Of a DNA stretch of 64,000 nucleotides, positions 31,789 through 32,579 are shown one piece after another. A program made the translations under genes and the position numbers. Numbering within the stretch: the stretch's first letter is position 1; each line of letters begins with the position of its first letter. Location: NCBI GenBank assembly GCA_964016885.1, contig OZ024741.1, positions 175,398,001 through 175,462,000 on the forward strand. Reading direction: 5' to 3'. The notes below the pieces were generated by a model. It was given only the letters and a program-made list of their open reading frames with translations. It was not told where the DNA came from and did no database searches. Origin of the DNA: Eledone cirrhosa (Eukaryota).

Positions 31789-32579
31789 TTTAATACATTA
31801 ACAGAGACAGCCTTAAGCGATACTCTGACCAACTCCATCTCACTCAACAAACATTAGGATATACCTAAGTATTTTCCCAATTTAGTGTTTGGGGTGCTAA
31901 CTAATCAGTATTTCGTCGATAGCTGGTTGTATTATTTTATATGAGACATTATTAAATAAATATCTCTTTCCTTCCAGACGATCGTTTCGTTATAAGATTT
32001 CTACAATTTGGGATAAATAATGTCCAGGTTATGTAGAAACTCGTATATAATCCATAGTTTTATACACAAGCGGGCGCTTATAAACTCATCAGTGGATGCC
32101 CAAATAATATCGATATAAAAATTATATCAACATTAATAGATTAGTGATGGTCTCCTTCAGCGCTAAAAAGAGACTGGTAGATTAGAAAATCCAGCAGTCA
32201 TCTCAAAGATAAAATACACGCTGTCCCCAAGAGGGTAAGGGAAGGTCATCTTAAAATATAAAACAATATACACGCTGGTCATTTAAACCTGTTAGGTATT
32301 AACCACGTGTATAAGAATTTAATTGGATATTAAAAGAATAACTTTATGTATACACAACCAATCCACACACAGAGATATTAAAACATAATAAATACATGTA
32401 TGGATCACCTATATACACACATAGCTATTCTCTAAGGCTAAATCAGACATGGGATACAAGGAAGATCAATCAGTATTTCATATAAAAAATAATAATAATA
32501 AAGATAGTCATACCTTATATCTGGAAATCATATCCGGCCACCAAGAGTATATATTTAATACATTAACAGATAAAGCCTT
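31789..32579 (-). mobile_element. HHR element family N: 765 bp unit with ~25-30 bp terminal direct repeat
   Basis: tttaatacattaacaga(gac/taa)agcctta at both ends (taata at 31791 and 32556); (TA)n on both sides. Confidence 0.75.
31973..32096 (-). ncRNA. Hammerhead ribozyme, family N, ~100 nt stem II domain
   Basis: Reverse complement tcca CTGATGA gtttataag...cttataac GAAA CGATCG TC tgga. Confidence 0.85.

Follow-up and report, generated by a model that had tools for sequence, protein, structure and literature searches.

The window denotes the whole 64,000-nt stretch of Eledone cirrhosa DNA that was analyzed. On its minus strand, an insertion carrying a hammerhead ribozyme (HHR) sits between (TA)n tracts. 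The insertion, its ribozyme and its flanks are laid out as follows.

31789..32580 (-): whole insertion, 1.03 units of subfamily A
31791..32555 (-): 765-nt non-coding unit
32554..32580 (-): start of the second turn, a copy of 31789-31815 and the 5' truncation point of the window copy
31786..31820 (-): fixed 3' end (reverse-transcription start) joined to (TA)n
31791..31972 (-): 3' domain, from cut site to fixed end
31675..31790 (strand not given): (TA)n target on the element's 3' side
32579..32780 (strand not given): (TA)n-rich target on the element's 5' side
31973..32096 (-): type I HHR
32096-32093 with 31976-31973 (-): stem I, UCCA / UGGA
32086..32092 (-): core CUGAUGA
31989..32085 (-): giant stem II, 97 nt
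32083-32077 with 31996-31990 (-): basal helix of stem II, closing a three-way junction
32039..32071 (-): hairpin IIa
31999..32038 (-): hairpin IIb, with an internal loop
31978..31988 (-): GAAA (31988-31985) and palindromic stem III ACGAUCGU (31985-31978)
between 31977 and 31976 (-): predicted cut, after GUC
32101-32098 / 32075-32072 (-): possible GGGC/GCCC pairing of the stem I flank with the stem II junction

The window copy comprises one 765-nt unit plus an overlap of 25-27 nt, inserted in (TA)n. Positions 31789-31815 and 32554-32580 are identical at 25 of 27 nt (31/33 including the adjoining TA) with a period of 765 nt, which bears out the direct repeat that an earlier note on this DNA had placed at both ends. 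That note's terminal redundancy of ~25-30 bp describes this copy correctly but is not a feature of the family: because the overlap varies from 25 to 611 nt across loci, the end repeat is element sequence plus a truncation point, not a target duplication. Since only one HHR is present, the insertion would be incapable of monomer release by itself, and we infer that it is a daughter copy.

Read as a circle, the unit has a longest ATG ORF of 57 aa. Protein-coding capacity is absent from the units of all four subfamilies described below (longest ATG ORF 35-68 aa as circles), and none of these circles contains an RT plus GIY-YIG ORF. Circular folding gave z scores of -9.0 for the HHR strand and -2.1 for the opposite strand (25 shuffles each). 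The 3' domain is the most conserved part, with a four-way identity of 62% versus 38% for the 5' part across the four subfamilies, and 31791..31972 is likely the RT-recognition region. A 12-mer that occurs twice, at 31903 and 32468, was rejected, as it is not conserved at both sites in subfamilies B-D. An Rfam scan of the whole window gave, among the 150 of 205 matches listed, nothing but microsatellite-driven miRNA noise.

The ribozyme has the hallmarks of a type I HHR, namely a CUGANGA, GAAA and NUH core and three helices. Instead of the short stem II hairpin of canonical type I HHRs, it carries a 97-nt branched stem II, whose predicted fold consists of a 7-bp basal helix and two hairpins and includes the UUUCUACA/UGUAGAAA pair. 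Core and stem III are intact in 30/43 full subfamily-A units. The minus-strand HHR of the earlier note, with its intact core, CGATCG stem III, GUC site and ~100-nt stem II insert with extra hairpins, is confirmed. The note had also expected standard descriptors to miss this fold, and they do, because the Rfam Hammerhead_1 (RF00163) score of the window HHR, 18.4 bits, falls below the gathering threshold of 34. [quoted passage not shown] With its core kept in 30/43 units and its fold recovered by RNAalifold, the window HHR is not a chance motif.

Across 33 named base pairs, 98% of cells pair, against 34-51% in slid controls. Two-sided changes were found in 8/33 pairs (one in stem I, one in the basal helix of stem II, three in hairpin IIa, one in hairpin IIb and two in stem III), a number not above shuffles (94/500); covariation rests on four subfamilies, so independent events are few. 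Across subfamilies, three of the nine counted pairs of hairpin IIa change on both sides and four on one side, and the two-sided change in hairpin IIb occurs in subfamily D. The GGGC/GCCC pairing, a candidate tertiary contact between stems I and II, is kept in 95% of cells with no two-sided change. It could be a pseudoknot or an inhibitory fold, the latter being conceivable because the pairing is present in the inactive minimum-energy fold predicted for the A segment. In subfamily A, the fold of lowest predicted energy is a different one, and the active HHR fold lies 11 kcal/mol above it in the circle.

Stem III is palindromic through three sequences in subfamilies A-C, with variants ACGGCCGU and ACAAUUGU, and is predicted to form an 8-bp intermolecular helix. 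The two forms in A have predicted dimer helices of -11.4 and -15.5 kcal/mol and no monomer hairpin; in subfamily D, stem III is longer and its loop is palindromic. Dimer cleavage via stem III palindromes is described as established for PLE (Penelope-like element) and amphibian HHRs (PMC4209133, PMC7229834). In several sub-lineages, and also from one turn of a locus to the next, the center of stem III alternates between GGCC and GAUC (L012, L018, L066, L011, L023), and wobble-compatible GGUC intermediates occur in 2/43 A units. At L273, of subfamily D, both HHRs carry a common private change that mismatches stem I.

Pattern searches for a short-stem-II relative with the same stem III and for a pyrimidine-first stem III palindrome each gave 0 matches. 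Fifteen shorter-stem matches proved to be deletion copies of subfamily A, not separate relatives. The patterns also matched 10 metagenome loci and 7 loci on viral contigs; these were attributed to chance, as they lacked stem II pairing and resembled none of the units. No natural HHR with a branched stem II this large was found described in a check of mostly open-access main texts that included passages of PMC3088659, PMC6155905, PMC13725137, PMC8490949 and PMC7761336, although HHR alignments in supplements may contain examples with a long stem II; the nearest hint was the Naiad half-cores 35-50 nt apart (PMC8557442).

A search of the 3.0-Gb genome yielded 3,096 candidates. Among 40 that were scored, 39 were other near-full copies of 91-95% identity. 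In each of the 30 loci examined, the alignment begins at unit position 1-5, mostly adjoining (TA)n, whereas the opposite end varies; the fixed end corresponds to the 3' terminus of the HHR strand and lies 186 nt beyond the cut. At five loci (L003, L009, L015, L077 and L080) a few extra bases separate the fixed 3' end from (TA)n and look like re-priming or slippage at the reverse-transcription start. Depth at L077 in three runs of one sample (type unrecorded) falls away from the fixed end; confounded by sister families, it is not readable as expression. Subfamily A has 67 exact unit-junction matches, no pair of them one unit apart, and no long tandem arrays were seen among them. Overlaps span 25-611 nt in the 64 junction matches examined and never reach a full second unit. 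An apparent overlap maximum of ~350 nt, which would have implied a fixed pseudo-LTR (pLTR), vanished with more loci. Both the variable overlap and a type I rather than type III HHR depart from the features of LTR retrozymes and TRIMs. Four identical copies with a 572-nt overlap (L304-L307) lie on three contigs and are probably a segmental duplication or assembly redundancy.

Three further subfamilies were traced from diverged pieces in the flanks: B (737 nt), C (713-726 nt) and D (707 nt, HHR region 98% identical). Their searches gave about 2,000 candidates each, counts that overlap and are not copy numbers. Pairwise unit identity among the four subfamilies is 59-81%, and they agree in their fixed end, which lies 179-189 nt beyond the cut, in being flanked by (TA)n and in their 5' truncation. 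Multimeric copies, which the earlier note had proposed seeking in the genome, exist as 2.3-2.4-mers in B, C and D (maximum 2.43 units), and two HHRs within one locus occur at L010 and L020. An inverted arrangement was seen at one locus, L106. Fixed 3' end, variable 5' truncation, partial tandem and (TA)n target are all features of PLE-type insertion, and the same pattern of target-primed reverse transcription with partial tandems is described for PLEs (PMC8557442).

The 5' ends of copies point to the predicted cut site. Of 163 ends, four fall exactly on the first base after the cut (L105, L283 and L296 of subfamily A; L163 of C), making this the commonest value (Poisson p 0.0006 at local density; 0.002-0.013 allowing for AT junction bias). 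Sixteen ends lie in 0..+18 of the cut versus two in -18..-1 (p 0.0007). A junction-selected sample of 60 independent loci, with four identical copies and one inverted pair collapsed, has 11 ends just after versus one just before the cut (p 0.003). These samples come from similarity searches, most of which required an HHR, so first-turn ends after the cut are under-sampled; the first-turn and second-turn labels of subfamily A, being unreliable, were left out of the analysis. The pile-up constitutes indirect evidence of cleavage in vivo, and its simplest reading would be RT run-off at a self-cleaved 5' end. The exact-cut copies had crossed an intact junction before stopping at the cut. Genomic ends of this kind indicate that RNAs already cut, whether linear or nicked, are templates too, so that a model of closed circles alone is too simple.

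Private variants tie the turns of a locus together. In subfamily A, overlap segments of one locus share 17 private variants at 13 of 34 loci, where 1.15 were expected, a level reached in 0/10,000 permutations, and subfamily alleles are concordant between overlap segments in 89/116 cases (expected 24.8). Ten subfamily-D loci share 16 private variants versus 0.2 expected; ten of the 16 come from the 2.43-mer L277, whose turns differ by 0.4% against a between-locus divergence of 4.8%. The cut site is read through cleanly, with indels within 4 nt of it in 0/207 segments. Shared private variants of this sort are as predicted if one RNA was copied twice, although they could be inherited from an unsampled homogeneous multimer. 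In subfamily A, about a quarter of diagnostic alleles are discordant between overlap segments, within-locus divergence is 4.7%, not near zero, and several mosaic copies were seen; at L012, L018 and L066 the two turns differ in stem III, one reading GAUC and the other GGCC. The best fit is a template pool that contains both closed circles and cut molecules. The earlier note's proposal of one turn plus a short overlap on a circular RNA thus gains from the variable overlap, the shared private variants and the indel-free read-through, but not in the form of a closed circle alone. In the literature consulted, mostly open-access main texts, 5'-end and shared-variant tests were not found for such elements.

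PLEs are present in the window itself. A Neptune-type fragment, with 19,593 genome candidates, carries a small HHR and ends in (TA)n, but does not resemble the unit. Its HHR has the same polarity as that of the unit, with ~150 nt from cut to end. Although (TA)n is also its target, this PLE was rejected as best partner for want of end similarity, its end matching the unit terminus at 11-12 of 35 positions. Neptune-type sequence lies at 41360-43510 (-) and 45741-46389, with an inverted 5' end and a tail; its HHR has the core CUGAAGA, an 18-nt stem II and a UU cut, and a second related family occurs at window position 60953.

Another window repeat ends in a similar 35-mer before (TA)n, and this is the 3' UTR of a Hydra-clade PLE with RWK-like, DKT, CxC, CxxC and CxH motifs. 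The family has 73,056 candidates, many with 713-aa open frames; clades were assigned by the motifs of PMC8557442, as Pfam did not recognize the PLE ORFs. Over the terminal 29 nt, the units agree with the Hydra PLE end at 19 (A), 21 (B) and 22 (C) of 29 positions, where background in the window reaches 18, 18 and 19, respectively; three window positions attain the scores of 19, 21 and 22, equal to the number of such ends identified there. In a comparison that covered two of many PLE families, and for a short and AT-rich match, the resemblance is suggestive in B and C and marginal in A. The Hydra-clade family is the best candidate for protein supply, at about even odds, and because at least 10 other Hydra-like fragments occur at the loci, the true partner may be a relative. 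Hydra-clade 3' ends lie at 47375-47670, 50600-50900, 37370-37510 and in L217, and the family has two alternative 3' ends (about 80-nt tail). No canonical HHR was seen in its ~1.2-kb 3' UTR, though HHRs are reputedly universal in the Hydra clade. For one PLE, reverse transcription is reported to start internally, at a site without homology to the target (PMC11167929); this fits subfamily D, since the D junction is not TA-like. That PLE is described as the only one tested in vitro, and HHR cleavage was unnecessary for its insertion (PMC11167929).

Collectively, the element is probably a non-autonomous, non-coding non-LTR retrozyme, mobilized in trans by a PLE from both circular and cut RNA templates. 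It is of a known kind, with an HHR architecture that was not found described. Genomic copies display its anatomy, fixed 3' end, (TA)n target, 5' truncation and covarying fold, together with the pile-up of 5' ends at the cut and an overlap that appears re-copied from one unit. From these copies we infer transcription, dimer cleavage, circle ligation and the identity of the protein-supplying PLE. Loci with at least two HHRs would be transcribed, and the HHRs would cut, probably as dimers via palindromic stem III. The 765-nt monomer thereby released, its ends held by stem I, could be ligated to a circle. The PLE endonuclease would nick (TA)n, and the PLE RT would start at the fixed internal site, 186 nt past the cut, copy through the intact junction and stop variably after at most 2.4 turns, or else run off at a cut end. 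The window copy would represent one turn plus 25 nt.

Rival readings of the same copies differ chiefly in the template. Under one, the same element and PLE machinery would use only linear, partly cut transcripts of multi-unit loci and no circle: one HHR makes the 5' end, the next stays uncut, and overlaps are inherited from homogeneous multimers. The copies that cross one intact junction and then end exactly at the cut (L105, L283, L296 and L163) agree with such templates, as do the clean junctions and the availability of 2.3-2.4-mers as possible sources, and unprocessed RNA is reported as the dominant in vitro substrate of the anole PLE (PMC11167929). However, because 5' truncation only shortens, each subfamily and sub-lineage would need a route from a single unit back to multimers. 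That private variants occur on both turns indicates that such rebuilding happened many times, and no two of the 67 exact A junctions lie one unit apart; we consider an exclusively linear template unlikely. A further alternative supposes linear cut monomers on which the RT jumps from 5' end to 3' end, in a nicked circle held by stem I, with no ligation. Jumping would account for the stop at the cut and for the shared private variants, and mosaic copies do exist. RT template jumps are usually imprecise, whereas junction indels occur in 0/207 segments; mosaic breakpoints, judged by eye, are not concentrated at the cut, and this route seems improbable.

The earlier note had also offered a solo pLTR with tail, in which the unit would be the 3' UTR of an autonomous PLE. 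The Neptune PLE has the same polarity and a similar HHR-to-end spacing (~150 nt after the cut), and Xenopus retrozymes are described as resembling pLTRs (10.64898/2026.07.22.740005). Against this, the unit joins itself head to tail, its 5' flanks are mostly (TA)n, and no pLTR-length similarity was found to 30 Neptune and 30 Hydra loci, so that a solo pLTR becomes very improbable; an unsampled PLE family is a possible ancestor of the unit. There is a negligible chance that the end repeat is a target-site or local DNA duplication beside a chance or dead HHR motif, even though the (TA)n at both ends would hide a true duplication, and 8/9 predicted Xenopus retrozymes are reported to have failed to cleave in vitro (10.64898/2026.07.22.740005). 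The duplication, which the earlier note had named as the outcome that would overturn its reading, is refuted, for at every locus the repeat consists of element sequence, and its length varies (25-611 nt); the dead motif is opposed by the covarying fold and by 5' ends that mark the cut.

HHR variants abound in this genome. A separate type I HHR at window positions 31453-31539 (+), with a 39-nt stem II and 8-bp stem III, is the predicted minimum-energy fold (z -2.3), has a relative in L062 and sits inside an element with long inverted repeats (31059-31670). L001-L248 and the window contain at least 10 more families of type I HHR, whose stem II measures 12-50 nt; in several of them stem III is palindromic and stem II has a weak or mismatched base. 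At 37796-38626 and 59094-60016 the window holds a young 591-nt partial-tandem family in (TA)n, of 1.4-1.6 units with overlaps 99-100% identical, in which HHR core scans found none; with the same architecture, it possibly carries another ribozyme class or none.

The action of PLE and retrozyme HHRs in vivo, the use of circles as templates and the mover of animal retrozymes are open questions in the literature (PMC7761336, PMC8557442, PMC11167929, 10.64898/2026.07.22.740005). Two genomic tests used here, 5' ends at the cut and private variants common to turns, are applicable to any assembly, and the family supplies a candidate partner PLE for animal retrozymes. Because a natural HHR has a covarying 95-97-nt three-way stem II, surveys limited to short stems undercount ribozymes. 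The branched stem II HHR also offers a natural scaffold for regulated cleavage. It is conceivable but rather doubtful that the branched stem II is functional, as a binding site or switch for the PLE protein or a host factor that gates cutting and re-ligation; the family would then be a circular-RNA parasite of a Hydra-clade PLE with a naturally allosteric HHR, and ribozymes bearing large structured arms may form a widespread class overlooked by current descriptors.

Several known systems share parts of this organization. The discontinuous mouse hammerhead is a type III ribozyme in the Clec2 3' UTR, with its insert in stem I. Unlike it, the HHR described here has its insert in stem II, as a conserved covarying structure within a mobile element. 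Both are alike in that a natural HHR tolerates a large arm insertion, the mouse hammerhead having a very large loop (PMC3088659). Plant LTR retrozymes resemble the element in their 600-1000-nt HHR-to-HHR unit and proposed circular intermediate (PMC7761336); they differ in that the element has no fixed LTR, a type I instead of a type III HHR and no visible 4-bp target duplication. Chlamys PLEs such as MRC1 are likewise non-autonomous and head-to-tail, with a 3' end resembling that of an autonomous family (PMC8557442), but are mostly without HHRs and belong to a different clade and host kingdom.

Hydra and Neptune PLEs (PMC8557442, PMC4209133, PMC11167929) come closer, with 5'-truncated partial tandems in (TA)n, inverted arrangements, an HHR 150-190 nt before the 3' end, an internal RT start and dimer-type stem III. 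More-than-unit reverse transcription of a circle has been proposed for PLEs (PMC4209133). The element differs in lacking the RT and GIY-YIG ORF, and PLE HHRs have a stem II of 6-8 bp. No RNA reads of the anole PLE are reported to begin or end at the cut (PMC11167929), whereas genomic 5' ends mark the cut here.

The closest likeness is to metazoan non-LTR retrozymes (PMC7229834; 10.64898/2026.07.22.740005), which share a non-coding AT-rich unit with one type I HHR, head-to-tail organization, a short palindromic stem III and co-occurrence with PLEs. The U-U pair at the stem II base of B and C recurs in the axolotl HHR_Amex2. The unit length falls within the 51-972 bp range of 10.64898/2026.07.22.740005 but is about twice the 150-400 nt typical of invertebrate retrozyme units. 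Metazoan retrozymes have a 4-5-bp hairpin as stem II, in contrast to the 95-97-nt three-way junction, and occur in arrays, whereas the copies seen here are dispersed partial tandems of at most 2.43 units. In the account of PMC7761336, metazoan retrozymes are without a motif pointing to the mobilizer; unlike these, the element combines a PLE-like terminal motif with insertion into (TA)n and an internal 3' end that is fixed. With an HHR in each unit, no coding capacity and tandem loci, it nonetheless has those defining properties of a non-LTR retrozyme that can be read from genomic sequence.
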